64,000 bases of DNA. Source: Candidatus Cloacimonadales bacterium (GTDB lineage: Bacteria > Cloacimonadota > Cloacimonadia > Cloacimonadales > JAIOQZ01). The position numbers were made by a program, and so were the translations under genes. The stretch is taken from positions 1,792,001 through 1,856,000 of the forward strand of contig OY762463.1 in NCBI GenBank assembly GCA_963665815.1, read 5' to 3'. Below the pieces are notes generated by a model. The model saw nothing but the letters and a program-made list of their open reading frames with translations, did no database searches and had not been told where the DNA came from. Shown in pieces: positions 17,371-58,627 of the stretch; the first letter of the stretch is position 1, and the number at the start of each line of letters is the position of its first letter.

Positions 17371-18533
17371 CTTACACTCCGTTTATTCTGTAATCTGAAT
17401 TCCTCTAATACTATTTTTTCGATCTCAGATTGAACTGTATAGTAATTAAATTTATTTTTAACTGTTTCTCTGCCTGACTTCGCCAATAATGATATTAGTT
17501 CATGATCAAAATGAATATTCCTGATGCAGCTCAATAATGATTCTGCGTTACCATATTCAAATACAACACCATCTCTCATATTGGTGATAATCTCTGAAGC
17601 CCCATATCTGTCAGGAACAATTACCGTCATTCCATAAGACATTGCTTCAATTACAACACGACCAAAAGTTTCTGTAGCGAGTGAAGAAAAAACAAGTACA
17701 TCGTTCTGTTCATATACAGTTGCTATATCTGCAGCTTTTCCCTTCAGTTCCACTCTATCATCAAGATTCTTTTCTCTTACCAAATTCTTGAGAAAATCCA
17801 CATATTCTTCATCACCATTTCCGTATATATGGAATGTGAAATTTTTGTCTTCCAGATTTGAAAAAGCATCAATTGCAAGCTCATATCCTTTTCTGGGTTC
17901 AATTCTCCCACAACTGATATATCTGACTGTATTGCTCTCAGCTCTGTTTATGGACTCAGGAATATGCACACTACGCGGTACAACATAGTTCCTTTCAGCT
18001 CTGTACTTTCTAACAACCTCTTTCCCTACCCATTCTGATGGAGTTAAAGTATACTTCAACTTCAGTTTCCCTCCGACAGCACCGGGGAGCAAGTTCTTCA
18101 CTGCTCTTTTAATATAAGCTGCGGCAGATTCCTGTTCATAGACATCCGGCCAGAAATCTCCGATAGAAAAAAGTACAGGCAAATTCCTTTTCTGAACAGC
18201 AATAACCGGAGCAATTGAGATCTTCTGACAATTCCAGAAGAAGACAAAATCAGGTTTAAAACAATTAAGCACTTCTATAGTTTTTTTATAATTATACTTC
18301 TCGACATTATGCTTGTCAAGAGCATTACCATTCAAATAATCAATGTATTTAAGAATTCTCCATGGTTCCTTTTTAATGAATCCCGGCTCTGGTTGATTCT
18401 CTACTCTGTAGTTTCCTGTCAGCACAACCACATCATGATTTTTTTTTAGAAATTCTACAGTATCTGCACAGGAAATTTCATATCCCCCGATATAATGAGG
18501 AGGATACAAATTTGAAACTACCAGTATTCTCAT
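17367..18533 (-). CDS. Glycosyltransferase family 4
   Basis: SNLYPPHYIGGYE, GRIEPRKG, ETFGRVVIEAM. Confidence 0.92.
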   Translation of the reverse strand: MRILVVSNLYPPHYIGGYEISCADTVEFLKKNHDVVVLTGNYRVENQPEPGFIKKEPWRILKYIDYLNGNALDKHNVEKYNYKKTIEVLNCFKPDFVFFWNCQKISIAPVIAVQKRNLPVLFSIGDFWPDVYEQESAAAYIKRAVKNLLPGAVGGKLKLKYTLTPSEWVGKEVVRKYRAERNYVVPRSVHIPESINRAESNTVRYISCGRIEPRKGYELAIDAFSNLEDKNFTFHIYGNGDEEYVDFLKNLVREKNLDDRVELKGKAADIATVYEQNDVLVFSSLATETFGRVVIEAMSYGMTVIVPDRYGASEIITNMRDGVVFEYGNAESLLSCIRNIHFDHELISLLAKSGRETVKNKFNYYTVQSEIEKIVLEEFRLQNKRSVR

Positions 18534-19471
18534 TTCAAAAAAATTCTTCTTATCTTTGTTGATATTTCATGTCTTACAGAAGCAATCAGCTCTCTGATGA
18601 AAGCTTCTTTCATAATCTTCTGTTTGTTAGCAGGCTGGAAAGAGTAAGGCAAATCCGGTAGTTCATATCCTCTGGAACGAGCCCAGTGAATAAACTGCAT
18701 TACCATTTCGTAAAACGGAATATTCTTATATGACCAGGTCTGCCACGGTTTAGGAAACAAACTGAAATGAATAATCTTTGCATCCATATTTTTATCATAA
18801 GGATAGACCCCAACTTCTGGACTGTCATCAGCAAAAGCAAACAATGAGTTCAAAACAGATTCATCTGTCATAAAGTAAGCAGTACTGCTTTTATTGTAGA
18901 CGCCTATAGTATTTTCGTCTATCACTTTCTCCATCTGGTTTTTCCATCTTTTAATGAAAGGCAGATGAGATTTATGAATAATAAAACAATTCGTTTCACA
19001 CACGGTTGATATAGTTGGAAAAGCACGTTCTCGTATATCCCATTTCCATATCTTCAAAACTTTTTCAGGAATAGTCCCGAATTTTTCTCCCCATGAATAT
19101 CTGTCCCGGTACACAAGACCATTTTCATGAAAATCCCTGAACCTGATATGAAAAAACGGTTCCGTTGCAACAAATTCATTCTTTATATTTCCGTTAACAA
19201 TACAATCTGCATCAACCCAGGTAGTAAATTCTGTATTCGAGGAAAATATTGCATCTGGTTTTTGAGTACAGACACTTCTTTTTGTCATCCTACCTTCAGA
19301 ATACACTTTAACATTGTCAAACTGCTGCAGCATATCGCGTTCTTTATCTGAGAGATCATATCCCATAACATGAACAGGATCTTCAACTCCATGATAACGA
19401 AGTGATATTATCAGGAGAAATGCTCCCCACAGGTAATTACTGTCACAGGCCGTTACGAAAGTATTATTCAT
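18530..19471 (-). CDS. GT-A fold glycosyltransferase, GT8-like
   Basis: TACDSNY, WVDAD (DxD), DESVLN and IIHF...KPW, resembling GT8 motifs. Confidence 0.65.
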   Translation of the reverse strand: MNNTFVTACDSNYLWGAFLLIISLRYHGVEDPVHVMGYDLSDKERDMLQQFDNVKVYSEGRMTKRSVCTQKPDAIFSSNTEFTTWVDADCIVNGNIKNEFVATEPFFHIRFRDFHENGLVYRDRYSWGEKFGTIPEKVLKIWKWDIRERAFPTISTVCETNCFIIHKSHLPFIKRWKNQMEKVIDENTIGVYNKSSTAYFMTDESVLNSLFAFADDSPEVGVYPYDKNMDAKIIHFSLFPKPWQTWSYKNIPFYEMVMQFIHWARSRGYELPDLPYSFQPANKQKIMKEAFIRELIASVRHEISTKIRRIFLK

Positions 19472-19878
19472 TTTCTGAGCAACTCTCTCAAATATTCCTG
19501 GATATGCATATCAGGTAGAATATCTATTCCGGCAAAGGATTTCAGAGAATACAGTATCAGGAATGCAACCAGAATTAAACTGATTAGAATACCAAGATAC
19601 ATTAAAAGCTGGAATACGAGAGTAATAGCTCTCTGACCGGCAGTGGCTTTTCCGACTCTGCTTTTCCTTCTCTGATCAACACCGATAATCCACACGAAAT
19701 ACAATCTCTTTATGAACCAGAATGTGAATCTGATATCAAAATATTTCTTTCCCAATGATGATGGAGAGAGTCTTCTCAGAACAGCTTTAATCTCTTTCTT
19801 CTGTTCATAATTTAAGCTTTCCTGTATTGTAGGATTGATCATATTGAACAGATAGTCTTCATCTCTTCTTTTAGCCAT
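19468..19878 (-). CDS. Small membrane protein of unknown function
   Basis: ATG at 19878 after GAGG overlaps the upstream stop. C-terminal hydrophobic helix; overlaps both neighbouring genes. Confidence 0.7.
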   Translation of the reverse strand: MAKRRDEDYLFNMINPTIQESLNYEQKKEIKAVLRRLSPSSLGKKYFDIRFTFWFIKRLYFVWIIGVDQRRKSRVGKATAGQRAITLVFQLLMYLGILISLILVAFLILYSLKSFAGIDILPDMHIQEYLRELLRK

Positions 19879-21217
19879 TTTCAATACCTCTATCAGTTTG
19901 ATCTTTATTAACATAAACTAATCTATGCATAGCTCCAATCACAGCAAAAACTAACATTAACTGATAAAAATTGTTAGTCTGCTTTAAAACCCACTCCAGC
20001 GATGATTCCAGATATATTGCCAGTAATCCACCAACTAAAGCAACGGGAATAAACACATATTTCGTTTTTCTGTACTTAAACAGATTCTTCAGATTTAAAA
20101 AATACATATATAATATGAATGTCAAGAAAACACCTAAGTTATGCCATCCTGTTTCGGCGGCAATCATTAAATATATTGTCTCAACAAGTCCATGACGTTC
20201 CATCGGGTCAGTTTCATCATGCATTTGAATGTGAGTACCATAATTAAATGGTGCATTAATAGCTTGACCAAAGTTATTCAACCCAACACCCAGCTTTTTA
20301 TCATCAGCCATTTTAACTGCTGCTTCCGCAAGAAGCACACGAGTAGTTTTTGATGCCTCCGGTGCTGTCTGATATCTCGTAATAATTGAATCCATTGCCT
20401 TAAGTAATGCAAGGGCTCCCAGAATAAGAAGAACTGCAGTGATGGCAATCTTTTTCCTGTTTACACCTACAAACATGGATAACGTCCACATTACAACCAG
20501 TGAGAGTCCGTATAATGCCATACCTGCTCTTGATAGAGTCGCAATAATTGATACACTGCCAAAACCTAGAATCAGTATCCAGACCATCAATCTTTTAACC
20601 TTTGAATTGAACAAGTATGAAAAAAAGAAGCTATTCAGTATAATAACATACATCACAAGTGAGTTCTGGTGTGGGAATGGTCCGGGAGATTGATAAATTC
20701 TATAGATATATTTCTGTTGCATCTGCATAAAGAATATGAATATTGAAATAATTGCAAAGTTTATCATCAATTCCTGAAATTTTGAATAATCATCAATATA
20801 ATTGTAAAGCACCCACCAGAATATATACATACGTACCATTTTCCAGACTTCAAACATGGAATACAGTGGAACAGGAGCATTAACAATAGACAGTATACTG
20901 AAAAAGAAGTAGATTCCATATAGAATTGTTCCCTTGGGAAGTCTCAGTTCTGACAAACTTTTTCGTGAGATTAGAACAAGAAAAATTACAAGTGTTGCCA
21001 GATCCACAAGTCCAACCTCGAAACCCTTGGATGTTCCCCTGTAAAACTCCATAGATACAAAGTTAATATCTTCCATTTTCGCTGTAAAAAATATCATCAG
21101 GAAAAAAGCAATCTTTTCGAAGATTCTGTATTGAAGGGAAAGGAAATATCCTATAGGTACACCAAATATCAGAACAATGAAAAATACCAGATACTTGTAT
21201 TCAATTCCAAAAAGCAT
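19871..21217 (-). CDS. O-antigen ligase/polymerase family protein (Wzy_C)
   Basis: Polytopic; HQNSL, TLSRAG, LGVGLNNF, YLMIAAETG. Confidence 0.85.
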   Translation of the reverse strand: MLFGIEYKYLVFFIVLIFGVPIGYFLSLQYRIFEKIAFFLMIFFTAKMEDINFVSMEFYRGTSKGFEVGLVDLATLVIFLVLISRKSLSELRLPKGTILYGIYFFFSILSIVNAPVPLYSMFEVWKMVRMYIFWWVLYNYIDDYSKFQELMINFAIISIFIFFMQMQQKYIYRIYQSPGPFPHQNSLVMYVIILNSFFFSYLFNSKVKRLMVWILILGFGSVSIIATLSRAGMALYGLSLVVMWTLSMFVGVNRKKIAITAVLLILGALALLKAMDSIITRYQTAPEASKTTRVLLAEAAVKMADDKKLGVGLNNFGQAINAPFNYGTHIQMHDETDPMERHGLVETIYLMIAAETGWHNLGVFLTFILYMYFLNLKNLFKYRKTKYVFIPVALVGGLLAIYLESSLEWVLKQTNNFYQLMLVFAVIGAMHRLVYVNKDQTDRGIENG

Positions 21218-21272
21218 GTGAAATCCTTATATCAGAAACGTGCTGGTTCCGAATAATCTGCGGAAATCATAC

Positions 21273-22304
21273 TTAATTATCATTTATAAGGTCATTTACA
21301 ATGTAATATCCCTGAATTGCATTAAGACTTGGAATTACAAGGTCAAGTACTTCATTCCAGTTTGCAAAAAGACTGGCAGGAACAAAAACGATATCATTCG
21401 GTTTTAATGGGAAATCCTGCACTTCTGCACGCATTACAGCTTTTGTATCAATTTTAAACAGCCTCGGATGAGACAGATTTCCACGTATAACATAAACTGT
21501 TCTTTTAGCAGTAGGTCGGAATCCATTAGCAAAACTGATAATCTGCATCAGAGTCATATTTTCTTTGAATGCATAGTGTCCTTGAGTATTAACTTCACCC
21601 AGAACGTAAATTTCTCTGTTTATTGCAGATGGTATATATATGTAATCTTTGTCTGCCAAAGGGATGTTATAAAGCATATTACCGTTTTTAATCAGCTCCA
21701 TGAAGTCTATAGGCAGAATTCTGCCATTTCTCAGAAGATAGGTTCTTTCCAGATCAGCCAATTCTGTAGTATTGTTCTGGAAGTAACCAACTGCAAGACC
21801 TCCACCTTCAGCAATAGCATCAAGGATTCTCATATCACCATCAAGAACTACTCTTCCCGGGCGTGTAATTTTTCCAAGTATAGTAACACTGGAACTTGTC
21901 AGCTGGACAGCTTTCATTGTAACTTGCGGATGCCTTATATATTCACTGAGAGCTTTTTCGATTTTTGTGGAAGCTTCAGGAATGGTCAATCCTTCTACAT
22001 GAAGGTCAGGTATTAATTTCAGAGATATTGTTCCATCCGATTTTACCATAACACCCATAGTTGTAAGTTCTTCTTCATCATAAACGAAGATGTCAAAAAC
22101 GTCTTCAGCCCCTATTGTATATTTTTTTATTGGAAGTGTATGCAGAGCTTTTAGCTCTTCCTCTATTTTCTTCTCATCTTTCTTTTCAACTTGAACAGAC
22201 TCAAGAAACTGAGGCATAGCAGTTACAGATTTCAGTTCCGGCTTCACTCTTACACAACTAAGTAAAATTATAGATAACAGCGTTAAAATTATAAGTTTTT
22301 TCAT
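21273..22304 (-). CDS. wza: Polysaccharide export outer-membrane lipoprotein with SLBB domains
   Basis: Lipobox LLSC; YTIG..D, DGTISLKLI...GLT, two SLBB repeats, LKPNDIVFVP. Confidence 0.9.
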   Translation of the reverse strand: MKKLIILTLLSIILLSCVRVKPELKSVTAMPQFLESVQVEKKDEKKIEEELKALHTLPIKKYTIGAEDVFDIFVYDEEELTTMGVMVKSDGTISLKLIPDLHVEGLTIPEASTKIEKALSEYIRHPQVTMKAVQLTSSSVTILGKITRPGRVVLDGDMRILDAIAEGGGLAVGYFQNNTTELADLERTYLLRNGRILPIDFMELIKNGNMLYNIPLADKDYIYIPSAINREIYVLGEVNTQGHYAFKENMTLMQIISFANGFRPTAKRTVYVIRGNLSHPRLFKIDTKAVMRAEVQDFPLKPNDIVFVPASLFANWNEVLDLVIPSLNAIQGYYIVNDLINDN

Positions 22305-22319
22305 AAATACTCCGTACTC

Positions 22320-24317
22320 CTAAGCCATGAAGTAAGGTTTGGGTACTTCATTCAGAATTCCGGCAATCGGTACATCTGTGTTCTTCTTAAGATAATCTAT
22401 TACACTTACCAGATGATCCCTGTTTGTATGACGGAATTTTGTTACAACCGTCAGTAAATCGGAAAATCCGGAAATTGTAGTAAACAACTGAAGATTCTGT
22501 TCCGCTTCAAACAATTCCCAGATGATAATATCATAACTTGTCAATTGCTGGAAAAAAGAAGTAAGCTGATCATTATCAAGAACATCTTTGTAAGCCTGAT
22601 CGTCATGCACAAAGTAGCATTTATGCAGCTTTTCAGCTATAACAAACATATTATCCTGTGATATTTCCTTTTTTTCGTAGACAGCTTTATTGATCATATA
22701 TGGTTCGATGTCATCATCATGCTCATCAATACTTTCTATCCAGAGAACTTTTTCATTTTTCGCCATGAATATCTCAACAAGTTCCCTGACAACAAACGAT
22801 TTACCGGAATCTGCATTTGGATTACCAACTGTAAGAAATGCCGGCATTTTCTCAGGCATCTGCTTTCTCAACTGCGAATACAATATCTGTAGTTGAGCAT
22901 GGAATATTGAGTCAGAATACATGTCTCTGTTAGGGATCTCAGCAAGGAAGTTAACATCTACAAAATTGTCATAATCATATTTAGACTTAACTCTGAAATC
23001 AAACAGTTCTCTGAAAATGTAAAATACCATGAATCCCGTAAATGTAAGGAAACCGAATGCCAGAGCTATCATCTTTCTTCCTGATGCCTGAGGATACTTA
23101 GGCGGTATAGCCGGTTCCAGAATTGCGAAGTCACTGACATTGGACTCCATAGCTATTCTGGATTCTACGATACGATTCTCCAGCATCTCAAGCAATCTGA
23201 TGGTCAGATCATACTTTCTTTTAAGCTCAAAATACTCTTTCTCAAGATATGACAACTCTGCAAGATCTTCCCTTACCTGATGGATTCTCATATCGTAATC
23301 ACCAATCAAATCCTCAGCAGATTTCAATTGATACTCAAACTTAGCCTTTTCACTCATCATATTCTGTTTTACAGGACTTTCACCATATGTAACAATATCC
23401 GGAATAATCTCCTGTTCAAACTCTTTTCCGGCAGCTAACTTTTCTTCGAGTTCTCTAATCTCTTCTTTCGTTTTGACGACTTTGGGATTCTTATCTGTGT
23501 ATGCTTCTTCATATTTTTCAAGATCAGCATACAATTTCTTAAGATTACTGTTATCAACTTCATTTACTGTCTGCCCAAGTTTCACAAACTCAGGGAATTC
23601 GGCAATTTTAAGATCAACTTCATCTATCTGACTTTTCAGTCCTTCAATAGTTATATTGTTTTCAATTTTTTTGAGTTCAAGATCATTCAAATGGTTATAC
23701 TTCATCTGTGTCTCATCTTCAATAGACAACACTCCATGCTGCTTTCTGAATCGTTCCATAGCAAGCTGATACCTGTCTAAATCATCGAGATACTTATCCC
23801 TTAACGGAAGATAGTAGTTGTATACCCTTTTGGTAGAAGCATTGAGAATATCAATGTAATTCTGAATGAATGTTTCTGCCAGAACATTGGCTATTGATAC
23901 AGATTTATCCCGCTCCTGGTGAAAAGCAGTAATATGTATAAGGTTGGATCTTCCACCTCTTTCAACATATATCTTATCAAATAGTTTATCGGGTGTTATC
24001 TCAAGATTAAGACTGTCTATTACTGACTGAAGGTTCTTTCTCATTCTGATAGATGAAAGAACTGTATTCAGGTCAAGCTGTTGATACAGATACGGCATAT
24101 CCTGTCTCATGGAAATATTCTTCATATTTCTGATAAGCGTACTTCTGGCTCGCCAGACTGGCGTCACTGTCAGTTTTGCATAAATTCCACCAATAACCAG
24201 CGCAATAAATGATGAAATCAGAACAAAGATAATTTTCCGCCTGATAGTAACAAACATTACTTTTTTATCAAACTTCATTAAATTAAATTTTTCATCTGCA
24301 TTATGAAATGAACTCAT
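22320..24317 (-). CDS. Polysaccharide co-polymerase (Wzc/GumC-like) with a degenerate kinase domain
   Basis: Two TM helices flanking a long coiled coil (YTDKNPKV); ILEPAIPP; Walker-A-like NADSGKS; GILN near the C-terminus; no Tyr cluster. Confidence 0.85.
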   Translation of the reverse strand: MSSFHNADEKFNLMKFDKKVMFVTIRRKIIFVLISSFIALVIGGIYAKLTVTPVWRARSTLIRNMKNISMRQDMPYLYQQLDLNTVLSSIRMRKNLQSVIDSLNLEITPDKLFDKIYVERGGRSNLIHITAFHQERDKSVSIANVLAETFIQNYIDILNASTKRVYNYYLPLRDKYLDDLDRYQLAMERFRKQHGVLSIEDETQMKYNHLNDLELKKIENNITIEGLKSQIDEVDLKIAEFPEFVKLGQTVNEVDNSNLKKLYADLEKYEEAYTDKNPKVVKTKEEIRELEEKLAAGKEFEQEIIPDIVTYGESPVKQNMMSEKAKFEYQLKSAEDLIGDYDMRIHQVREDLAELSYLEKEYFELKRKYDLTIRLLEMLENRIVESRIAMESNVSDFAILEPAIPPKYPQASGRKMIALAFGFLTFTGFMVFYIFRELFDFRVKSKYDYDNFVDVNFLAEIPNRDMYSDSIFHAQLQILYSQLRKQMPEKMPAFLTVGNPNADSGKSFVVRELVEIFMAKNEKVLWIESIDEHDDDIEPYMINKAVYEKKEISQDNMFVIAEKLHKCYFVHDDQAYKDVLDNDQLTSFFQQLTSYDIIIWELFEAEQNLQLFTTISGFSDLLTVVTKFRHTNRDHLVSVIDYLKKNTDVPIAGILNEVPKPYFMA

Positions 24318-24457: not shown

Positions 24458-27400
24458 TCAATCAATAATATCGCTTATATAACCTGCAATCTGCTCTACT
24501 TGAGGTTCTTTTAATATCGTGTCGTGAGTAGCATTTATTTTGAACATTTGAACTTTCTCAACAAAGATATCCCATGCCATATATGGATCGTCGACAAAAC
24601 TTGCCGGTTGTTGTAAAGCTTTAAACAACACAACTCCACCTTTGCATGGACGATAATTATACCTGCACACAGCTGCGATATTCTTTTTCCTTACAGCAGA
24701 ACGATTTGCAAACATACCCTGATCAAAAAAAGTATCTTCATCACCAAAATTCTGGTGATTTCCGAATCGATTTCTGATTTTTGTTTTCAGTATCCGCAAC
24801 GTCTCTTTTAAGCCTAACTCTACCAACAGCTTTATCTTACTCTTGAAATACTTCTTCCTTAGAGATTCAACTGGTCTGAATGCCCAGGTATCAAAAAGGA
24901 ACAAATGTTTCACATCGACTTTCTTCCATCTGAGCTGCTGCATCATTTCGTATGCTACTGTTCCACCAAAACACCAACCTCCGATATATACAGCTCCGCC
25001 CGGATGCCTTTCCTTAATAATCCTGACGTAATGTGCCGCCGTTTCCTCTACAGACTCAAGTGCCTTATCCGGATTCATTAATCCCGGTGCTTGAAAACCA
25101 TATATTGGCAGATCAGCTGGGAGATGTCTTATCAAATTCACATAACCCAGTAAATCTCCTGGCAGTGGATGCACCAGATACAAAGGTGTTTTCTTACTGT
25201 TTCCCTTTTGAAGTTCAACAAGTGAATAATCCCCGAACACTCCATCTTGAATGATTGTCTGCTCAAGTTTTCCTGCCAGTTCCTCCAGATCTTTATGTCT
25301 GAAAAGATCCTGTACTTTGAGACTTAAGCCTGCCTGACCCAGCCTGTTTATTACAAGCATACTAAGAACTGAATTTCCACCGAGTTCAAAGAAATTGTTA
25401 TTGATTCCAACATTATCAATACCAAGTACATCTCCGATTATGTTACACAATACTTCCTGATCAGGTGTTCCCGCTTTAACAATTTCATCCTGATTTTTCT
25501 TTATAGTTGCATCAGGAACAGGTAACTTCTTTCTGTCAATTTTACCATTTGCCGTAAGTGGAAACTCATCCATATAAAGGAAAACTCCCGGAATCATATA
25601 GTCAGGAAGCCTGTTTGCAATGGAATCAGCAATTTTTTTTACCGAAATTTCCTTATCCGCAATATAGTAACCGCATAACTGCAGCATTTCGTTTCTGTCT
25701 TTGAACGTATGAACAACAGCATCATTGAATAAACCGGTCTTCATCAGTTCATTTTCAATTTCACCAAGTTCAATTCTATGTCCCCTGATCTTAACCTGAA
25801 AGTCATTTCTACCAAAGCATTCAAGCCTGCCATCTACATCAAATCTAACAATATCTCCTGTTCTGTAAACAATTTCACTCACTCCTGAAGGATTTGTGAA
25901 ATCTACAAATTTCTGAGCAGTTAAATCTTCTCTGTTATGATAACCTGCAGTAATACCTTTTCCTCCAATCAGCAGCTCTCCTTTTACACCGTCAGGAACT
26001 GGGTTCAACTCAGAATCAACAACGTAAAGAGTTGTATTGACAACAGCATGACCAATGTATATCCTGCTGTCTGTCTCCAGTATTCTGTGAATAACAGACC
26101 ATACTGTAGTCTCAGTCGGTCCGTACATATTCCATAACTCACCGCACATCTTCAAAAGTCCTGATGCAAGATCATAAGATACCGGTTCTCCCCCGCACAG
26201 CACTTTCAGAGTCTCCGAGCCTTTCCAGCCAATATCTCTCAGCATTTTCCAGGTTGAAGGTGTTGCCTGCATAATAGTAATTTTTTCTGATTCTATCATT
26301 TCAGCAAGTTTCCCTGCATCGTAAACATCATCCCGAGAAGCCAGAATAAGTTCAGCTCCGGTAACAAGAGGAAGAAATACTTCCAGTACAGAGATATCGA
26401 AACTCAATGGAGTTACAGCGAGAAGTTTATCACCAATAGTCATTCCCGGTTCTTTCTGCATAGAAAGTATGAAATTTGTGACAGCACTGTGAGGCACTTT
26501 CACAGCTTTAGGTTTTCCGGTTGTTCCTGATGTATAAATATAGTATGCTATAGAATCAGGTTTAGAAGCATCTGCAGCATTTTCTGCTTCTTTGATGTCT
26601 TCAGATTTTATATCTTCCCAGATTCTGGCATTTTCAAAATCTATTCTTTGAGTATACTTCTTCTCAATAATAATCTGTTCTGGAGCAGAATCTTCTGCCA
26701 TAAAAAGAAGTCTGTCATTCGGAAACTCTGGATCAAGATACAGATATGCCGCTCCAACTCTCTGTATTGCACATATCAGAGCAATAAGATCAACAGATCG
26801 GTCCATCATTACAGCTATGATTCTGCTGTCAGCGTCGTGTTTTACCTTATTGCAATACGACTGCACCAGTTCACCAAATTCTCCATAAGTAATCGAAGTA
26901 TCTCCGAATTTTACTGCCGTTCTGTCCTGACAATCCTGTATTCTGTCAATTATCAGATTCTGGATAGTAGTATTCGGGAACTTTATCTCAGCTTTTCTAT
27001 TTCTTTCATCAATTAATTCTTTTTCAGCATCTGACAGTAGACCAAGATTCTTAATCTGAGTTCTGCTGTTACTTACCATCTGAGAAATAATTGCGTTATA
27101 ATGCTCTCCGGTTTTTTCTGAAAACCATGCCTCGAATAAATCAGGATTATACTCGAATCGGCAGTGCATACTGCCTTCAATCTCAACTATTTCCATCGTA
27201 ATATCAAGTTTTGATGTATCATTAGCCAGTATCTTCGCCTTTAACTCCAATCCCGGAATATCCAGATCAATAGAAGGCAGATTCTGGAACACAAACATCA
27301 CCTGAAAGAGTGGATGTCGGCTCAGATCACGTTCAGGATTCATCTTATCTACTATCGATTTAAAAGGATATCCGCTATGCGTGAGATTATCAAGGGTTTC

Positions 27401-30400
27401 TTTTCGAACAATATCTATTACATCACTTACATTATCATCTTTATGCACAGGAATTCTGTATAGCTGATTATCCATGAATGAGCCGATAACACCGTCATAA
27501 TCCGGATCCAGCCTGTTTGCCGCCGGTGAACCTATCAGAATATCTTCCTGAGCCGTGTATTTATAAAGCAGTAACCTGAATGCTGATAACAGCAGCATAA
27601 ATTTACTGGCACTTTTTTCTCTTGCCAACCTACTCAACTTACTGCAAAGATCTTTATTTACAGTGAAATAAATATTAGATCCATTTGTTGTCTGAACAGC
27701 AGGTCTTTCCTTCTGGGTCGGTAAATCAATTGGTTCAGGCAAAGGATTTAGTTTACCGGTCCAGTATTTCTCAAGCATTGCCTGCCTTTGCCTGTCAACA
27801 GGCTTATTAACAAAGTCTGCAAAAGTCCTGTCGGATTCAATCAGTTTCACAGATTTATTACTGATAAAAGATGTATAAATTGCAGTCAGTTCATTTATAA
27901 GAATACTTACTGACCAGCCATCCAGTACAATGTGATGGAAACAAATAATCATTCTATGATCATACTGAGATTTTCTCCAAACTTTAATCTTGAATAAAGG
28001 TCCTTCAGACAGATTAAATGAATGCCTTGTTACTTCTCTGTAAGCATCATCAAATTCTTTATCACTCCAGTTTTCTTTAGATACATCTATTACTTCAACA
28101 TCAACTTTATTGTAATCCATCGGCTTCTGAACAGGCAGACCGTTCCTTTCAAAGAATACACTTCTAAGAGCTTCATGTCTCTGCATCAGTTTGATAAGGC
28201 TTTTATTCATGACATAATCATCAAACAAGCCTTTTATTTCAAACAGAACAGGTATGTTATAAGCAACGTTATTTTTGTCCATTTTCCACAGGAACCACAA
28301 ACCTTCCTGCTGTATTGTAAGGAGATATTCTTTCCCGGAAGTTGACGTTGCAGATGTTTTCCCGAGTGTTTCAGCTTTGAATTCAGAATGGCTTATCTCA
28401 AGCAAAATATCGTCTATGGTTGAGTTATTCAGAAAATCATGCAGTGATAGCTTTGCATTGAATTTTTTCTCCACTCGGGCAATAAACTGCATTGCAGTAA
28501 GTGAATTCCCACCATTCTCAAAGAAATCATGCCTATCATCAATGTCTGTTTTTAAAACATCTTCCATTACATGAATAATATCAGCTCTGACATCAGTCTG
28601 CTCTAATGTTCCATCATCTCGTACAATGTTTCCCGTAACAAGTTCTATCAGATCCTTGAGGCTACTCTTATTCATAAAATCATGAATGGAAAGGTTTACA
28701 TTGAACTCTTTCTCAATGCGTGATATCAACTGCATTGCTGTAAGGGAATGTCCACCGTTCTCAAAGAAATCTGAATCAGGACTGTCATCATCTGATTTCA
28801 GTATTTCCTTCCATATTTTCACTACTCCCGCAATAGAACCATTGTCTGTTTTCTTCTCGGTTATTTCATCAGGTAGAATTCCTTTAAGACATTCGAGCGT
28901 ATCTCTGATTGATGTATGCTCCATAAAATCTGAGATTGATATGGCTACATTGAACTCTTTGTCAATTCGACTTATCATCTGCATTGCTGTTAGAGAATGA
29001 CCACCTGACTCAAAGAAACTTGAGTCTAAATCTATATTATCATTTTTTAAAACATCTCTAACAATCTGAAGAAGTCTCTGCCCAATCATTCCCGTTTTAT
29101 GAGAAATCTTCTTCTTCTCTGTTTTCCATACAGGTTCAGGCAAAACCTTTCTGTTTATCTTTCCCGAAGTATTGTACTCAAACTTATCCACGATCATTAT
29201 CAATGCAGGAACCATATATGAAGGAAGAGTATCTTTCATGAATGCCTTAAGACTGTCCGTGTTCAAAAAAACATTATCTTCCGGAAGTACATAAGCTATA
29301 AGCTGCTTCATCCCGGTTCTGTCTTCAACTGCAACTACAATGCATTCTGAGACTCCGTCATAATCTCTGCATAATCTTTCTATTTCACCCGGTTCAATTC
29401 TATGACCGCGTATTTTAACCTGAAAATCTATTCTTCCGGCTATCTCTAACAAATTGTTCTCGTTAATCCTGACCAGATCACCGGTTCTGTATATCAGCCC
29501 TTTTCCTGTAACCGGATTCTTAACAAAGCTTTTTGCAGTTTTCTCCGGATCGTTCAAATAACCTTTTGCTAATCCTGCACCACCAATGCACAATTCTCCC
29601 GATACACCTTTTGGAACAGGCCTCATGTTTCTGTCGAGAACGTAAATTTGAGTATTAGCAATAGGTCTGCCGATAGGAAAATCATTATCCTCATCTCCGG
29701 GTTCATACCAGGTAGAAATAATCGTTGTCTCAGTAGGACCATAAGTGTTCAGCAATCTGATTCTACCCTGAGTTTTTTCTTTCCAGATATTATATATTGT
29801 TAGATCAGCCTTTTCTCCACCTATAATCACTAATCTGACACAATCAGGAATTACATATTCATCAAGATGCTTTACCAGCTCATGCCAGTATGCCGTAGCC
29901 AGATTCAAAACTGTAATCTGTTCGGATTCCACATATCTCAGAAATCCGGGAATTGATGAAAAAGCTTCTTCAGTTCGTGGTATCAGTGTTGCTCCAGTTA
30001 GAAATGTAGGAAATATTTCTTCGACTGACAGATCAAAACTTATTGATCCAAACTGTAGATTTCTGTCTTTTTCTGTAAGCTCATAATCGTCGATCACTGC
30101 CAGATTATGGTTCAGCATTCCCCTGTTAAGCACTTGCACACCTTTGGGTTTACCGGTAGAACCGCTTGTATAGATCAAATACGCGACATCTTCCCCACCG
30201 GCAATAGTTTTAACTTCTGGTAGTTTTGCTTTCAGAACTTCAGCGAGCTGCACATTATAAACAACCTGTTTTATATCAAATCCTCTGATTCTGGTATAGT
30301 TTTCACTATCTGTGACGATAAGTTTTGCCCCGGAATCATTCAACATATATTCAATTCTATCATCAGGATAAGCTGCATCAAGCGGCATATATGCTGCCCC

Positions 30401-33400
30401 AGCTCGCAAAATACTAAGCAATGCCACATATAATTCGGGGCTTCTATCCATTACTACGGCGACAATATCACCTTTTCCTGTTCCATTGGCAGCAAAATAT
30501 CGGCTCCACTTGTCTGTAAGAGTCTTCAGTTCTGCATATGTAATTGTAATATCATTCATTTTTATAGCGATGTTATCAGAGAACATCCTGCAACGTTCTG
30601 TGAAAATCTCGCCATAAGATTTATTCAGAGGAAAATCTTTTTCTGTATTATTAAAGTCATCGATGGTTTCTTTATATTCAGATTCATTCAGTACTGATAC
30701 TTCATGAATTGGTGTTTTATCTGCATTTAAAACCTGATCAAAAACATCGGCAAAGCTGTCTGCCATGGATTCTATCAGAGAATCTGACAGGATATCGGTA
30801 TTGTATTCAATCCAGCACTCATAATTACCATCAATATCATCTACAGTCAAAGTGAAATCAAGCTTTGATGTATTGTTTCCAATCTCCTTCATTGTAATCT
30901 CAAGATTATGGAATTTCATTTCCGGTAGTGGAAAATTCTGAAATACGAACATTGCCTGAAATAATGGATGACGAGAACGATCCGGCTTATAGCCCAGATC
31001 TTTTATAAGCTCATCAAAGGGATATTCTGAGTTGGAGAAAGCTGAAATGACATTTGCATATACTTTTTTTGCAAAGTCCCCGAATGAAATATTCTCCGCA
31101 AGATTACTGCGTATTGGCAGCAGGTTTGTAAATATACCAAATATATTCTGTTTATCCGGGTGGTTCCTACCTGCGTATGGAGACCCTACAACAACATCAT
31201 CTGATGCGCCATATACTGAAAGTATAATATTCAGAGCAGACAGAAATACGGAGTATTCACTGATATGGTTAGATTCGGCATATTCTCTTATTTTGTTGGA
31301 TATGCGAGTATTAAGATGCCACCAGTATCTTTTACCGGAATCAGTCTGAACAGGCGGCCTTCTCTTTTTTAAAGGAAGCTCCAGGCTTTCTGGGAAAGGC
31401 AGAAGTTTTTCCTGCCAATAGTTGAGCTGCTTCTCGTACTTTTCTGCAGGAGTAGTCTTTTTCGACCATTCGGAGTAATCACCATAACTGACAGTTAATT
31501 CCGGTAATTCAACATCTCTCTGTTCTACAAGAGATGAATATATTTCCTTCCATTCTCTGAGGAACAGCCCCATAGACCAGCCATCTGTGATAATGTGATG
31601 TATTGTCAAAAAAAGTACAAACTTTTCAGCATCATATTTTACAAGCTTAGAATAAAACAGATTCCCTTTTTCCAGATCGAACACATACCTACCTGTCTCA
31701 ATCTCTATATCTTTCAGTTTGTTCATTCTGTTCTTATGGGAGGATATATCTGTGAAATCAATCTGTACTTCTTCGGGAGGATTTACTACTTGAAAGGGTA
31801 AATCTTTCATAGTTACAAAAGCTGTTCTCAATGATGCATGTCTTTCTGCAAGTTTAGTGAAAGTCTGTTGTAAAAAAGATCTGTCAATTTCTCCGCGAAT
31901 ATCTATTCTTAGAGGTATATTGTAGTCTATTCTGTCTTTGTCCAACATCCAGAAATACCATAGACCATGCTGAGAATAAGATAATGGGGATATATTCTGT
32001 GATGAAGCAGGTATTCTATCAATTAATTTCCCTTCCGAATTCAGCTTTTTACTGAAATCAGATATCGTGGGATTACTCAACAGAAGGTCTATTGTTGCAG
32101 CCGAATCTATGCCTGTATTTACAGCAGTAATGATCTGTGCAGCAATAATAGAGTTTCCGCCAAGGCTGTAGAAATTGTCTGTTATCCCAATTTTATCTTG
32201 TTTCAGGTATTTCCCCCAGATTTCTGCAAGAGAAACCTGTGTATCATTTTCAGGTGGAACAAAATCTGTTCTTGCAATGTTCCAGTCTGGTTCAGGCAGT
32301 GTTTTTTTATCAATTTTACCATTATCTGTCAGTTTGAATTCATCAAGAATAACATAGCTTGCAGGAAGCATATAAGATGGCAGTTCTTCAGCTATTGATT
32401 TCTTCAAATCATCTAAGGAGAAATCGTCTGATGTCCTAATATAAGCAACTATAGCTTTTTCTCCAACAAGATCATTTTTTACAAGAACAACGCAATCCTT
32501 TACTTTATTCTGCTTAAGAATTACCGACTGTATCTCACCAAGTTCTATACGATAACCTCGAATTTTTACTTGCGAATCGAGTCGTCCAATACAGTCAAAC
32601 TCACCATTAGGAAGTACTTTACCTAAGTCTCCGGTTTTATAGAGTTTTTCTCCATAAGTACCCGGTAATGGATTAGAAATGTAAGCTTTTTCAGTCATTT
32701 CAGGCTGATTGTAATAACCTCGCCCGACACAGTCTCCACCAATGTAAATCTCCCCTGTCTCTCCCTCGGAAAGAACATTATAGTCCTCGTCAAGGATATA
32801 TATCTGAGTATTATCTACAGGAACACCAATTGTAGGACTGTAATCAACTTCACCTTCATGTTCGATTACTTTTTCTGAAGCAATTACGGTACATTCACTC
32901 GGTCCGTAAAGATTCACTACATCAGGAGAAAAGTCCTTCGCAGGTCTTCTCGTTAATCTGTCTCCACCTACATAAAGGTATTTCAACTTTGATTCTGGAG
33001 CAACCGGACTCAGCATAAACATCTCTGCAACAGGTGTTGGCAGAAATGAAGCTTTTATATTATTCTTTTCGTAGTATTCATGCAGTTTCTCAGGATTAAG
33101 AATCAGGCTGGAATCAAGGATATGTAATGTTAAACCTGAACACAGAGCAGTCCAGAATTCCCAGACAGATGCATCGAAACCCACTCTTGCCGACTGTGTA
33201 ACATTTGTACCAGCCTCAAAAGGGAAACGCCTGATATGCCAGTTCACCAGATTAAGCAGATTTCGGTGTTCTATACATATTCCTTTAGGTAAACCTGTAG
33301 AGCCTGATGTAAATATCAAATAAGCCAGATTTTCTTTATTGGCTCTGTCTTCCGGTTTAGAATCTCTGCTATTGATTTTATTGAGATTTATCAATCTTCG

Positions 33401-33838
33401 ATCAGGATCCGGAATAGATTCCAGCATCTTATCATTTGTGATTATCACAGGTGTGTCAGTAATGTTAATTGTATGATTCAGCCTTTCAATGGGATACTCC
33501 GGATCAAGAGAAACATAAGCACAACCGGCTTTCACCACCCCAAGAACTGAAATAACGTAGTCTATTGAACGATCAATATATATACCTATTGGAGTATCAG
33601 GTTTTACAGAGGATTCCTGTATTTCTACAGCAAGATCATCTGCTTTTTTTTTCAGTGTACCATATGTAATACTTTGATTATTGTGAACTACAGCTGTGAG
33701 ATCAGAATTAGCTTCTGCAATTTTATCAAAGAGTCTGTAAATATTATCTGCGTCAGGATGATCAACTTTTGTCCTGTTCAGATCAAAGACTAATTTATTC
33801 CATTCTTTTGTGTCCAGCTCTGCATTTTTAAGTTTCAT
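24458..33838 (-). CDS. Non-ribosomal peptide synthetase, three modules: A-T-C-A-T-T-T-C-A-T-TE
   Basis: Three A domains (TSGSTG.PKG / TSGTTGKPK, YGP.E, Y.TGD, QVKIRG.RIE, GKI.RK-type A10); five GG(H/N)S carrier motifs; two HHxxxDG condensation motifs; terminal TE with GWCFGG. Confidence 0.96.
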   Translation of the reverse strand: MKLKNAELDTKEWNKLVFDLNRTKVDHPDADNIYRLFDKIAEANSDLTAVVHNNQSITYGTLKKKADDLAVEIQESSVKPDTPIGIYIDRSIDYVISVLGVVKAGCAYVSLDPEYPIERLNHTINITDTPVIITNDKMLESIPDPDRRLINLNKINSRDSKPEDRANKENLAYLIFTSGSTGLPKGICIEHRNLLNLVNWHIRRFPFEAGTNVTQSARVGFDASVWEFWTALCSGLTLHILDSSLILNPEKLHEYYEKNNIKASFLPTPVAEMFMLSPVAPESKLKYLYVGGDRLTRRPAKDFSPDVVNLYGPSECTVIASEKVIEHEGEVDYSPTIGVPVDNTQIYILDEDYNVLSEGETGEIYIGGDCVGRGYYNQPEMTEKAYISNPLPGTYGEKLYKTGDLGKVLPNGEFDCIGRLDSQVKIRGYRIELGEIQSVILKQNKVKDCVVLVKNDLVGEKAIVAYIRTSDDFSLDDLKKSIAEELPSYMLPASYVILDEFKLTDNGKIDKKTLPEPDWNIARTDFVPPENDTQVSLAEIWGKYLKQDKIGITDNFYSLGGNSIIAAQIITAVNTGIDSAATIDLLLSNPTISDFSKKLNSEGKLIDRIPASSQNISPLSYSQHGLWYFWMLDKDRIDYNIPLRIDIRGEIDRSFLQQTFTKLAERHASLRTAFVTMKDLPFQVVNPPEEVQIDFTDISSHKNRMNKLKDIEIETGRYVFDLEKGNLFYSKLVKYDAEKFVLFLTIHHIITDGWSMGLFLREWKEIYSSLVEQRDVELPELTVSYGDYSEWSKKTTPAEKYEKQLNYWQEKLLPFPESLELPLKKRRPPVQTDSGKRYWWHLNTRISNKIREYAESNHISEYSVFLSALNIILSVYGASDDVVVGSPYAGRNHPDKQNIFGIFTNLLPIRSNLAENISFGDFAKKVYANVISAFSNSEYPFDELIKDLGYKPDRSRHPLFQAMFVFQNFPLPEMKFHNLEITMKEIGNNTSKLDFTLTVDDIDGNYECWIEYNTDILSDSLIESMADSFADVFDQVLNADKTPIHEVSVLNESEYKETIDDFNNTEKDFPLNKSYGEIFTERCRMFSDNIAIKMNDITITYAELKTLTDKWSRYFAANGTGKGDIVAVVMDRSPELYVALLSILRAGAAYMPLDAAYPDDRIEYMLNDSGAKLIVTDSENYTRIRGFDIKQVVYNVQLAEVLKAKLPEVKTIAGGEDVAYLIYTSGSTGKPKGVQVLNRGMLNHNLAVIDDYELTEKDRNLQFGSISFDLSVEEIFPTFLTGATLIPRTEEAFSSIPGFLRYVESEQITVLNLATAYWHELVKHLDEYVIPDCVRLVIIGGEKADLTIYNIWKEKTQGRIRLLNTYGPTETTIISTWYEPGDEDNDFPIGRPIANTQIYVLDRNMRPVPKGVSGELCIGGAGLAKGYLNDPEKTAKSFVKNPVTGKGLIYRTGDLVRINENNLLEIAGRIDFQVKIRGHRIEPGEIERLCRDYDGVSECIVVAVEDRTGMKQLIAYVLPEDNVFLNTDSLKAFMKDTLPSYMVPALIMIVDKFEYNTSGKINRKVLPEPVWKTEKKKISHKTGMIGQRLLQIVRDVLKNDNIDLDSSFFESGGHSLTAMQMISRIDKEFNVAISISDFMEHTSIRDTLECLKGILPDEITEKKTDNGSIAGVVKIWKEILKSDDDSPDSDFFENGGHSLTAMQLISRIEKEFNVNLSIHDFMNKSSLKDLIELVTGNIVRDDGTLEQTDVRADIIHVMEDVLKTDIDDRHDFFENGGNSLTAMQFIARVEKKFNAKLSLHDFLNNSTIDDILLEISHSEFKAETLGKTSATSTSGKEYLLTIQQEGLWFLWKMDKNNVAYNIPVLFEIKGLFDDYVMNKSLIKLMQRHEALRSVFFERNGLPVQKPMDYNKVDVEVIDVSKENWSDKEFDDAYREVTRHSFNLSEGPLFKIKVWRKSQYDHRMIICFHHIVLDGWSVSILINELTAIYTSFISNKSVKLIESDRTFADFVNKPVDRQRQAMLEKYWTGKLNPLPEPIDLPTQKERPAVQTTNGSNIYFTVNKDLCSKLSRLAREKSASKFMLLLSAFRLLLYKYTAQEDILIGSPAANRLDPDYDGVIGSFMDNQLYRIPVHKDDNVSDVIDIVRKETLDNLTHSGYPFKSIVDKMNPERDLSRHPLFQVMFVFQNLPSIDLDIPGLELKAKILANDTSKLDITMEIVEIEGSMHCRFEYNPDLFEAWFSEKTGEHYNAIISQMVSNSRTQIKNLGLLSDAEKELIDERNRKAEIKFPNTTIQNLIIDRIQDCQDRTAVKFGDTSITYGEFGELVQSYCNKVKHDADSRIIAVMMDRSVDLIALICAIQRVGAAYLYLDPEFPNDRLLFMAEDSAPEQIIIEKKYTQRIDFENARIWEDIKSEDIKEAENAADASKPDSIAYYIYTSGTTGKPKAVKVPHSAVTNFILSMQKEPGMTIGDKLLAVTPLSFDISVLEVFLPLVTGAELILASRDDVYDAGKLAEMIESEKITIMQATPSTWKMLRDIGWKGSETLKVLCGGEPVSYDLASGLLKMCGELWNMYGPTETTVWSVIHRILETDSRIYIGHAVVNTTLYVVDSELNPVPDGVKGELLIGGKGITAGYHNREDLTAQKFVDFTNPSGVSEIVYRTGDIVRFDVDGRLECFGRNDFQVKIRGHRIELGEIENELMKTGLFNDAVVHTFKDRNEMLQLCGYYIADKEISVKKIADSIANRLPDYMIPGVFLYMDEFPLTANGKIDRKKLPVPDATIKKNQDEIVKAGTPDQEVLCNIIGDVLGIDNVGINNNFFELGGNSVLSMLVINRLGQAGLSLKVQDLFRHKDLEELAGKLEQTIIQDGVFGDYSLVELQKGNSKKTPLYLVHPLPGDLLGYVNLIRHLPADLPIYGFQAPGLMNPDKALESVEETAAHYVRIIKERHPGGAVYIGGWCFGGTVAYEMMQQLRWKKVDVKHLFLFDTWAFRPVESLRKKYFKSKIKLLVELGLKETLRILKTKIRNRFGNHQNFGDEDTFFDQGMFANRSAVRKKNIAAVCRYNYRPCKGGVVLFKALQQPASFVDDPYMAWDIFVEKVQMFKINATHDTILKEPQVEQIAGYISDIID

Positions 33839-33840: not shown

Positions 33841-34419
33841 TTACTCCGAATCCTGATGTTCAAACTCATTTTTAAGTATTGAAAACAGATAAACATCGAA
33901 AAACTCTCTTCTGGATTCATGATACCCAAAGTCTCTTAGTCTGCCTTCCTTAGTAAAGTTTAGCTTCTCAAGCAGTTTGAATGATGGCAGATTACCCGGG
34001 CGAACAAGAGCCTGTATACGATGAAGTCCCATATCCTCAAAACCAAAACGAATTACTTCTGAAAGAACTTCAGTCATGATGCCTTTATTCCAGAATTCAC
34101 GCTTCAGATCATAGCCAATTTCGGCAATGGAGTTTTTAACAAATTTCCCGAAAAGGCATGTTCCTATCATCCTGCCGGTTAACTTATCAGCAACAGCCCA
34201 TCTCAGATATTCCTGTTTAGAATACTGTTCATCGAAAAAGCGGATTATAATCTTTGCAATATCCGGAGTTCCCGGACCATCCCAGTCCAGAAACTGAATA
34301 ACTTCCGGAGAATTATATAACTCACTGAAATCTTCAGAATCTGTCTCATTTATCTTTCTTAAAACACATCTTTCAGTTTTAAGAATAGGAAAATTCATAA
34401 AAGCTTTTTGTACGCTCAA
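33841..34419 (-). CDS. GNAT N-acetyltransferase (RimJ/RimL-like)
   Basis: LKTERCVLR, AEIGYDL...WNKGIMTE, LHRIQA...N..S.KLLEKLNF..EG.LR. Confidence 0.9.
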   Translation of the reverse strand: MSVQKAFMNFPILKTERCVLRKINETDSEDFSELYNSPEVIQFLDWDGPGTPDIAKIIIRFFDEQYSKQEYLRWAVADKLTGRMIGTCLFGKFVKNSIAEIGYDLKREFWNKGIMTEVLSEVIRFGFEDMGLHRIQALVRPGNLPSFKLLEKLNFTKEGRLRDFGYHESRREFFDVYLFSILKNEFEHQDSE

Positions 34420-34442: not shown

Positions 34443-35450
34443 CTAATACCCTGCAGGATTCTTTACCTGCCAGTTCCACATATCTACACACATTTTATCT
34501 ATACTGTATTTTGCTTTCCAATTCATTTTGTTTAACGCTTTTTCCGGATCTGCATAAGAAGTAGCAATATCTCCGGATCTTCTTTCGGTAACTTTGTAAG
34601 GAACTGCTTTTCCAGTAGCCTTTTCAAATTCCTTTATAATCTGTAAAACGGAGTAACCTGCACCTGTTCCAAGGTTGATAATTTCCAGTCCGCATTCTTT
34701 CTTAAGAAGATCTAATGCCGAAATATGTCCATCCACAAGATCAAGAATATGAATGTAGTCTCTGACTCCTGTTCCATCCGGTGTATCATAATCATCACCA
34801 AACACTGACAGCATTTCTCTTTTACCTATCAGCACCTGAACAATAAACGGGAACAGATTATTAGGTTTACCATTAGGATCTTCTCCAATTAATCCTGATT
34901 CATGTGCTCCAACCGGGTTAAAATATCTGAGCAATACGATATTCCAGTTATTCTCAGCTTTGTACAAATCCTGCATAATATGTTCTACCATAAGCTTAGA
35001 CTGTCCATAAGGATTTGTTGGTCCAAGGTCAGCTTTTTCTGTAAGCGGAATCTCACTTGGCTCACCGTAAACAGTTGCAGAAGAACTGAATATAATATTT
35101 CGTACGTCATTCTCATTCATTACTTCAAGTAGATTCAATGTACCGGTAACATTGTTTTCGTAGTACATCAATGGTTTTTCCACAGATTCCCCTACAGCCT
35201 TCAAGCCAGCAAAGTGAATTGTTCCGAAGATATCGTTTTCCTTGAATATCTTTCTGAGAATCTCCTTATCTCTAATATCGCCTTCGTAGAATTTAACATT
35301 CTTTCCGGTGATTTTCTTTATTCTATCAAACACAACAGGATTACTGTTACTATAGTTATCTATTACAACAGGTTCATAACCCTGATTTAACAATTCAACA
35401 CATGTATGACTTCCAATAAAACCGGCTCCCCCGGTCACTAATATTTTCAT
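34443..35450 (-). CDS. galE: UDP-glucose 4-epimerase
   Basis: HFAGLKAVGES, FSSSATVYG, NPYGQSK, LRYFNPVGAHESGLIGEDP, DGTGVRDYIH. Confidence 0.96.
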   Translation of the reverse strand: MKILVTGGAGFIGSHTCVELLNQGYEPVVIDNYSNSNPVVFDRIKKITGKNVKFYEGDIRDKEILRKIFKENDIFGTIHFAGLKAVGESVEKPLMYYENNVTGTLNLLEVMNENDVRNIIFSSSATVYGEPSEIPLTEKADLGPTNPYGQSKLMVEHIMQDLYKAENNWNIVLLRYFNPVGAHESGLIGEDPNGKPNNLFPFIVQVLIGKREMLSVFGDDYDTPDGTGVRDYIHILDLVDGHISALDLLKKECGLEIINLGTGAGYSVLQIIKEFEKATGKAVPYKVTERRSGDIATSYADPEKALNKMNWKAKYSIDKMCVDMWNWQVKNPAGY

Positions 35451-35464
35451 TTATCCTCCATTTA

Positions 35465-36595: not shown

Positions 36596-36604
36596 AAGAC
36601 CGCC

Positions 36605-38008: not shown

Positions 38009-38019
38009 AATAGATTCCG

Positions 38020-39314: not shown

Positions 39315-39324
39315 TTATGCTCCT

Positions 39325-41371: not shown

Positions 41372-41383
41372 TCGTCAAACCTG

Positions 41384-43934: not shown

Positions 43935-43940
43935 GAAATT

Positions 43941-47122: not shown

Positions 47123-47124
47123 GT

Positions 47125-49050: not shown

Positions 49051-49058
49051 CGTATCTC

Positions 49059-50267: not shown

Positions 50268-50373
50268 TTTTGCTCCGTATACTTAGCATGATAAATTCAA
50301 AAGTAAGCTTTGATTATTTCGCACGTAAAATTCAGTAAATTCCGAGTAATGCAAAATTCTTACCATGTTAATA

Positions 50374-58623: not shown

Positions 58624-58627
58624 ATTT

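Follow-up and report, generated by a model that had tools for sequence, protein, structure and literature searches.

A family-wide cysteine thioesterase closes a three-module nonribosomal peptide synthetase in a Cloacimonadales polysaccharide operon

We analyzed a 64,000-nucleotide stretch of DNA (the window) from a Candidatus Cloacimonadales bacterium (assembly GCA_963665815.1, contig OY762463.1, positions 1,792,001 to 1,856,000), focusing on the thioesterase (TE) domain that ends its nonribosomal peptide synthetase (NRPS). All features of the window described below lie on the minus strand. The NRPS gene spans 24458..33838 and encodes 3126 amino acids, as established from the open reading frame (ORF) list, the translation and Pfam; its ORF is uninterrupted across 9.4 kb. 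Pfam identified three AMP-binding, two Condensation, five PP-binding and one Thioesterase domain, and together with motif positions this gave the domain order A-T-C-A-T-T-T-C-A-T-TE, where A, T and C are the adenylation, carrier and condensation domains; Pfam found no starter C domain before module 1. The TE domain occupies residues 2866-3126 (24461..25243). It was defined by Pfam PF00975, an AlphaFold2 model and Foldseek, and it served as the query of all TE searches. PF00975 scored 68 bits against a cut-off of 26.4 on residues 2885-2986, at the C-terminal end of the protein and after a carrier domain; the last PP-binding domain, with GGNS at residue 2820, stands just upstream.

An earlier note on this stretch had described a cysteine nucleophile in an elbow reading YIGGWCFGG and a histidine motif, ATHDTIL. 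By ORF translation and codon position, the first reading is exact: the GGWCFGG core holds Cys2956, encoded by the TGT codon at 24971..24973, and this cysteine is invariant in TE alignment A1. The histidine motif is likewise present, within INATHDTIL, and places His3105 at 24524..24526, invariant in alignments A1 and A2. The triad acid is Asp2983 (24890..24892, within LFLFDTW), 27 residues after the cysteine; it occupies position I, as in EntF and in AB3403 of Acinetobacter baumannii. An H-P-L-P-G-D loop at TE residues 25-30 (25154..25171) is a further signature, one that co-varies with the cysteine.

An AlphaFold2 model of the domain (261 residues), built on an alignment of 24 sequences, had a mean pLDDT of 90.9, a pTM of 0.90 and the strand and helix order of an alpha/beta-hydrolase. 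In TE numbering the GWCFG motif is residues 89-93, and the model places the cysteine between a strand (85-90) and a helix (92-106), Asp118 directly after the strand 111-117, and His240 after the last core strand (230-236). As modeled, the triad layout is that of a standard alpha/beta-hydrolase with cysteine replacing serine. The best match of the TE among PDB sequences was AB3403 (4ZXH/4ZXI; E 1.6e-20, rank 1 of 37), and the best Foldseek match of the model was again 4zxh (E 7.3e-18, query TM-score 0.70), followed by the epimerising-cyclising TE 7crn/7dxo, the Pks13 TE at rank 5, and the TEs of EntF, fatty acid synthase (FAS) and NocB. Judged by its sequence, the domain is a genuine and active-looking Cys-His-Asp thioesterase (Cys2956, His3105, Asp2983).

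To place the cysteine in its family, we performed an exhaustive HMMER search with the TE domain, which returned 26,671 proteins at E <= 1e-3, about 10,000 at E <= 1e-10 and 81 at E <= 1e-30. Nucleophiles were counted in the best-scoring TE domain of each of the 150 best 50%-identity cluster representatives, resulting in 100 with Cys, 47 with Ser and three with another residue; nine of the ten best representatives carried Cys, and the commonest elbows among the 150 were GWCYGG (39) and GWCFGG (33). In a FastTree tree of 123 full-length TE domains, a method whose support is weaker than that of a full search and in which long branches were flagged, the Cys/Ser label changed eight times, compared with a mean of 30.5 for shuffled labels (none of 500 shuffles was as low). 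The query falls in a starred set of 25 tree rows, 24 of them with Cys and one with Ala.

We then turned to the genomic loci of the closest relatives. A genome scan with patterns drawn from the close clade yielded nine closest loci (L001-L009), all in Candidatus Cloacimonadota assemblies, with TE identities from 83% down to 38%. The scan's other 71 loci were mostly Ser thioesterases and are an unfair sample of Cys thioesterases, so they were used for context alone. All nine closest loci have a GWC(F/Y)GG elbow, written with a TGC codon in five and TGT in four, which indicates codon drift under a conserved residue; the position of Asp2983 holds D or E in 9/9. The earlier note had named a serine in close syntenic homologues as the observation that would speak against its view, and no such serine was found in these nine loci.

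The cysteine also travels with other residues. We compared 87 Cys and 32 Ser thioesterases from the same search and found that, in the Cys thioesterases, an H-x-x-P-G-D sequence follows the first core strand: TE position 28 is Pro in 73/87 of them and in 0/32 of the Ser thioesterases, where it is mostly Gly, and TE position 30 is Asp in 90% versus 19%. The triad acid is Glu in 56% of the Cys thioesterases and in none of the Ser thioesterases; a His occupies the triad position in 99% and 100%, respectively. We infer that the HxxPGD loop contributes to the oxyanion hole and changed in step with the nucleophile. By these comparisons of sequence, the window TE is a member of a large, old subfamily of NRPS release domains with a GWC(F/Y)GG elbow, and its cysteine is a conserved family trait, not a one-off adaptation to a glycan acceptor.

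What peptide reaches this domain can be predicted from the three A domains. The ten specificity positions follow GrsA numbering and the columns were mapped by us. The module 1 A domain (32285..33727; Pfam and column mapping) has the code DAWLYGLVIK, which we take to be of a hydrophobic type. The module 3 A domain (25511..26953; column mapping) reads DILQLGMVWK, which we assume to be the classical Gly code; this agrees with the earlier note, in which the last module appeared Gly-specific and devoid of a beta-nucleophile. That code is shared with the related proteins P0002, P0004 and P0005, and the PDB sequence matches of the module 3 A domain include AB3403 (E 5.8e-102). The module 2 A domain (29132..30595; column mapping and NCBIfam MxcG score) has the code DLENIGTIIK, in which positions 239 and 278 are acidic, and the NCBIfam model for MxcG, whose A domain we presume to activate lysine, scored 369.5 bits on it versus 241.6 on the module 1 and 242.2 on the module 3 A domain. 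On the strength of the acidic pocket residues and the MxcG model score, the substrate of module 2 is predicted to be Lys-like or basic. A literature search for six ten-residue codes related to that of module 2 gave no match.

Module 2 is also unusual in its carrier domains. Three T domains stand in tandem at 28289..29101 (residues about 1580-1850), with GGHS, GGHS and GGNS at residues 1612, 1695 and 1776 and pairwise identities of 34-49%. Among the relatives examined, this triple arrangement is confined to the polysaccharide-embedded lineage of the window protein and P0002, the sole relative with more than 50% identity in a homologue search that retained 74 proteins of 759 candidates, all with generic names; P0004, P0005 and P0007-P0010 have a single carrier domain in each module. 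P0004 and P0005 follow the same three-module logic as the window NRPS. P0006-P0009 and L004-L009 are without the Gly module, and their Cys thioesterase comes directly after a DLEDIGTIIK-type module.

To determine whether the cysteine goes with a particular last module, we took the TE domains among the 150 representatives that had a complete A-domain code within 250 residues upstream, and defined a Lys-like code as E at position 239 and D, N or Q at position 278. This left out 31 Cys and 43 Ser thioesterases without an adjacent A domain, and nine Cys and 10 Ser thioesterases with partial codes. Among 72 Cys thioesterases, the last module was Lys-like in 34, Gly in 14 and other in 24, compared with two, one and 15 among 18 Ser thioesterases (Fisher p 1.6e-4, uncorrected for ancestry). 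The genome scan also returned cyanobacterial loci in which a GFCVGG elbow follows a module with the code DVGELGSIDK, presumably an Orn-type code. The link between Cys thioesterases and Lys-like or Gly modules would fit release to an amine.

In the window, the NRPS gene lies in the middle of a single long operon running from about 53281 down to 15022. Its GC content (0.38) is close to that of its flanks (0.36). Immediately upstream, a gene for a GNAT acetyltransferase (Acetyltransf_3, RimJ-like; 33841..34419; Pfam 3.4e-28) ends two bases before the NRPS start. Downstream, the 140-base gap between the NRPS gene and the next gene holds no terminator-like site, and export and assembly genes follow at 15022..24317: a Wzz-like gene, Wza (Poly_export), a multiple-transmembrane protein, two unknowns, a GT4 glycosyltransferase, an OmpA/PEGA protein and a Wzx-like flippase, as assigned from Pfam, NCBIfam and hydropathy. 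Upstream, at 34443..53281, Pfam and NCBIfam identified polysaccharide synthesis genes, comprising two GalE, a phosphoglycosyl transferase, a WecG/TagA-type glycosyltransferase, GT4s and a GT2. The same upstream block includes regulatory genes: STAS, SpoIIE-HATPase, HD-type and GGDEF response regulators and a histidine kinase. The embedding of an NRPS in a polysaccharide export operon, in an uncultured anaerobe phylum, is an unusual context.

Several further observations concern this operon. Five of its proteins (within 18530-21217, 35465-36595 and 43641-43934) matched no family even with E values allowed up to 1. One family-less operon protein of 448 amino acids has about eight hydrophobic segments and may be a Wzy polymerase, and another of 313 amino acids has a very weak glycosyltransferase-like match. 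Two genes appear to be fusions: a 467-amino-acid protein (36605-38008) with partial NTP_transferase, hexapeptide-repeat and C-terminal Bac_transf matches, and a 446-amino-acid protein (40031-41371) with a partial Bac_transf match before the WecG/TagA glycosyltransferase domain. The regulators lie at 38020-38349 and 47125-53281; alongside the STAS protein and the histidine kinase they comprise a fusion of SpoIIE phosphatase with HATPase_c_2 and two response regulators, one HD-type and one PAS-GGDEF. Their domain content suggests partner-switching plus cyclic di-GMP (c-di-GMP) control. About 22 kb from the NRPS, at 55888-62461, lies a resistance-nodulation-division (RND) efflux locus with a TetR regulator, AcrB, a 6-pyruvoyl-tetrahydropterin-synthase-like protein, OEP and an HlyD-type adaptor. 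Pfam recognised no phosphopantetheinyl transferase (PPTase) in the window.

Among the loci with sufficient flanking sequence, a polysaccharide context is confined to the window, L001 and L002. Synteny between L001 and the window is complete, with GalE, GNAT, NRPS, Wzz-like, Wza, five further genes and a Wzx-like gene at 75-97% identity. L002, on a short contig, holds the 3' end of the NRPS gene, followed by genes for a SpoIIE/HATPase protein and for a GT2 sharing 55% identity with the window GT2. L003, L004, L005 and L008 have the Cys thioesterase and matching upstream modules and lack polysaccharide genes up to 10 kb from the TE. The neighbours of L003 are a GNAT, a PPTase, a divergent deacetylase-family protein and M14 and C11 peptidases; those of L008 are a GNAT, a PPTase and an M16 peptidase. 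In L004 a C25 peptidase is upstream of the NRPS relative, and in L005 AcrB and OEP genes, an RND pump, are directly upstream. A GNAT homologue (49-92% identity) adjoins the NRPS at L001:828-1403, L003:9271-9834, L006:3247-3786 and L008:10863-11399; none was found within the available flanks of L002, L004, L005, L007 and L009, three of which are short or truncated. This recurrence inside and outside the polysaccharide setting marks the unit as an NRPS with a Cys thioesterase, usually accompanied by a GNAT, with the polysaccharide setting specific to one lineage. In L003 and L008, the PPTase stands beside the GNAT. The peptidase genes that adjoin NRPS relatives (L003:12033-17166, M14 and C11; L004:2-4768, C25; L008:12820-15705, M16) may be there by chance in a protein-fermenting phylum, or may reflect a link between small basic peptides and proteases.

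Taken together, we think that the window TE is an AB3403-like off-loading thioesterase that would release a small hydrophobic-Lys-Gly peptide made with the polysaccharide, and we hold this reading to be rather better than an even bet. The tripeptidyl chain would consist of a hydrophobic residue, a Lys-like residue and Gly, possibly N-acetylated by the adjacent GNAT. Transthioesterification would pass it from the last carrier to Cys2956, and it would leave as a small soluble peptide, taken off by water or, as the cysteine makes suggestive, by an amine nucleophile. The amine might come from a Lys side chain, either within the chain itself or on a second one, or it might be a free amine; towards these nucleophiles a thioester acyl-enzyme is more reactive than an oxoester. 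In the accessible portions of the ObiF and BulbE papers, the thioester is argued to favour weaker or bulkier nucleophiles (PMC6668435, PMC11792885). The peptide would be made together with the exopolysaccharide because the NRPS gene belongs to that operon. Which residues are loaded, what the GNAT does and which nucleophile effects release are all predictions from the genes. For the nucleophile, water is our leading candidate, at somewhat less than an even chance, and an amine has a lesser though still considerable chance; some other acceptor is improbable, and a glycan marginally more so.

Several points weigh against this off-loading reading. AB3403 has a Ser-type loop, HPIGGS, in place of the HPLPGD of the window TE, so it is the nearest solved relative and not clearly of the same subgroup; what it offers is a solved, functionally uncharacterised precedent for a GWCFGG Cys thioesterase after a Gly module. 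The sub-clade to which the window TE belongs is known from sequence alone. The putative substrate assignments derive from specificity codes and one model score. The sample behind the association with Lys-like and Gly modules was ranked by likeness to a Cys thioesterase and ancestry was uncorrected, and the association is therefore a lead and no proof. A direct Lys-to-Gly lactam would be an unfavourable 10-membered ring, which makes hydrolysis at least as likely as release to an amine. Finally, the tight operon embedding (the two-base GNAT gap, the missing terminator-like site and the full synteny of L001) fits a stoichiometric role in the polymer, as does the lineage-unique triple carrier domain.

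The alternative that survives best, which we consider possible if somewhat doubtful, is that the TE works by analogy with the polymyxin TE and lets the Lys-like residue, through its epsilon-amine, or a second chain, through its free N-terminus, release the product as a lactam or a cyclic dimer. Cyclisation through a basic side chain was also among the suggestions of the earlier note, and is plausible. The preponderance of Lys-like modules next to Cys thioesterases (34/72, compared with 2/18 for Ser thioesterases) points this way, although that association ignores shared ancestry. So do the two-module relatives (P0006-P0009, L004-L009), in which the chain ends directly in the Lys-like module, and the cyanobacterial GFCVGG relatives, whose DVGELGSIDK module is presumably Orn-type. 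Changing Cys to Ser in the polymyxin TE costs 60-fold in activity, and the BulbE TE accepts primary amines, according to the accessible part of PMC11792885; the same text describes the BulbE cysteine as dispensable for amine nucleophiles, so an amine alone needs no cysteine. In the window NRPS, however, a Gly follows the Lys-like residue and imposes the 10-membered ring on a direct lactam, and acetylation of the N-terminus by the GNAT, should it occur, would block head-to-tail routes.

The earlier note had put a different role first, transfer of the peptide to a sugar. Here the Cys thioesterase would attach the tripeptide to a hydroxyl or amine on a sugar of a lipid- or nucleotide-linked repeat unit, giving a peptide-decorated exopolysaccharide, and we regard this as unlikely. 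In its fuller form, to which we give the same low weight, the NRPS would have been recruited in this lineage into a Wzx/Wzy pathway, with the tripeptide placed onto the repeat unit or nascent polymer and the triple carrier supplying the flux. The setting argues for it: the NRPS gene is co-directional with, and lies between, glycosyltransferase, Wzz, Wza and Wzx genes, with a GC content like that of its flanks, two bases from the GNAT and with no terminator-like site downstream. The arrangement recurs in L001, and in L002 with GT2 and the SpoIIE-type gene after the NRPS; the lineage-only triple T domain would suit high flux, and a TE known from sugar acylation, that of Pks13, is among the fold matches. 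Yet the same Cys thioesterase and upstream modules occur without polysaccharide genes in L003, L004, L005 and L008, and the cysteine is a clade trait found in 100/150 representatives, which undercuts the inference that it serves a sugar acceptor. Pfam and NCBIfam profiles of the window proteins found no sugar aminotransferase or deacetylase in the window that would form an amino sugar, and no peptide-sugar ligase or free amino-sugar route was found there. The Pks13 likeness is that of the general TE fold, since EntF, FAS and NocB give similar scores. At this locus the peptide might be transferred to a glycan, as far as the genes there can tell, but this would not be the purpose of the cysteine across the family.

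Two further explanations can be set aside. A sequencing error or a dead domain is highly improbable and was ruled out: TGT is one base from both TCT and AGT, yet the cysteine is present in 9/9 relatives with both Cys codons, and the triad, elbow and fold are intact in an ORF that is unbroken over 9.4 kb. Release as a beta-lactone or beta-lactam in the manner of ObiF and SulM, which the shared Cys nucleophile alone would favour, has next to no chance and was ruled out by the acid position, the elbow motif and the Gly module.

The reading of the window TE as an AB3403-like off-loading domain bears on how Cys thioesterases are viewed. In the partial texts consulted, the literature presents them as uncommon enzymes that signal atypical release chemistry, such as formation of a beta-lactone, a beta-lactam or an N-acylindole. 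Here, the GWC(F/Y)GG Cys thioesterase is the rule in a large and mostly uncharacterised family with an HxxPGD loop and a clear bias towards a preceding Lys-like or Gly module, and a Cys elbow alone is a poor sign of exotic chemistry. Apart from general surveys, a literature search for a GXCXG family or for NRPSs in Cloacimonadota brought up no papers but those on ObiF, SulM and BulbE. The question of why a cysteine is used becomes testable on small, tractable two- and three-module enzymes.

Among known systems, ObiF and SulM were the precedents given in the earlier note. Both are indeed Cys thioesterases, and in the available parts of the two papers their triad Asp is described as relocated (PMC6668435, PMC11298585), with Gly at position I in ObiF1 (PMC6668435); the choice of precedents was incomplete, as it omitted the AB3403, BulbE and polymyxin TEs. 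ObiF and SulM resemble the window TE in being terminal NRPS domains with the cysteine in a GxCxG elbow. They differ in the place of the acid, which in the window TE is at the canonical position I, and in the last residue, which has a beta-nucleophile in ObiF and SulM and is Gly-type here; SulM also has Gln-Cys-Asn in place of Trp-Cys-Phe. ObiF1 and SulM were absent among the Foldseek matches listed to rank 50.

The BulbE and polymyxin TEs are closer to the window TE in the reaction that might be expected. As the available text of PMC11792885 describes them, the BulbE TE is a Cys thioesterase that N-acylates an indole and can use amines and alcohols as well, and the polymyxin TE is a Cys thioesterase that performs side-chain macrolactamisation. 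The polymyxin TE closes its ring with a basic side-chain amine, and the window peptide has a predicted Lys-like residue. We liken these two domains to the window TE by description and not by sequence; the uncommon catalytic cysteine is common to all. Their substrates are long enough for comfortable rings, whereas the window chain would be a tripeptide ending in Gly.

The Pks13 thioesterase of mycobacteria transfers an acyl chain to trehalose and is a precedent for a TE that acylates a sugar. It shares the fold of the window TE (Foldseek E about 1e-15), and the NCBIfam Pks13 model matched TE residues 11-120 with 67.7 bits, a score well short of its cut-off. Pks13 differs in its Ser nucleophile and its polyketide synthase (PKS) context, and its likeness to the window TE is no greater than that of the EntF, FAS and NocB TEs.

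The closest of the known systems is AB3403, a C-A-T-TE termination module that is the orthologue of ABBFA_003403 / A1S_0115. It has an identical GGWCFGG elbow and a triad Asp aligned at position I; the sequence alignment with the window TE is confined to TE residues 8-123. According to the part available of the SulM TE paper (PMC11298585), AB3403 is the only other structurally characterised nucleophilic-Cys TE, and has its Asp at "position I". The two systems differ in architecture: AB3403 consists of one module, which receives its substrate from a stand-alone acyl ligase and acyl carrier protein (for the lipopeptide Ac-505), whereas the window NRPS has three modules and a GNAT partner. In their last module they agree, as the A domain of the AB3403 orthologue preferred Gly among 20 amino acids tested, in the accessible portion of PMC5376624, and the last module of the window NRPS is Gly-type. 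The same portion links the AB3403 operon to a 505-Da lipopeptide-like product and to biofilm, pellicle, motility and virulence phenotypes (PMC5376624). The two enzymes sit in comparable settings, AB3403 in a biofilm-linked operon and the window NRPS in a polysaccharide operon with c-di-GMP-type regulators.

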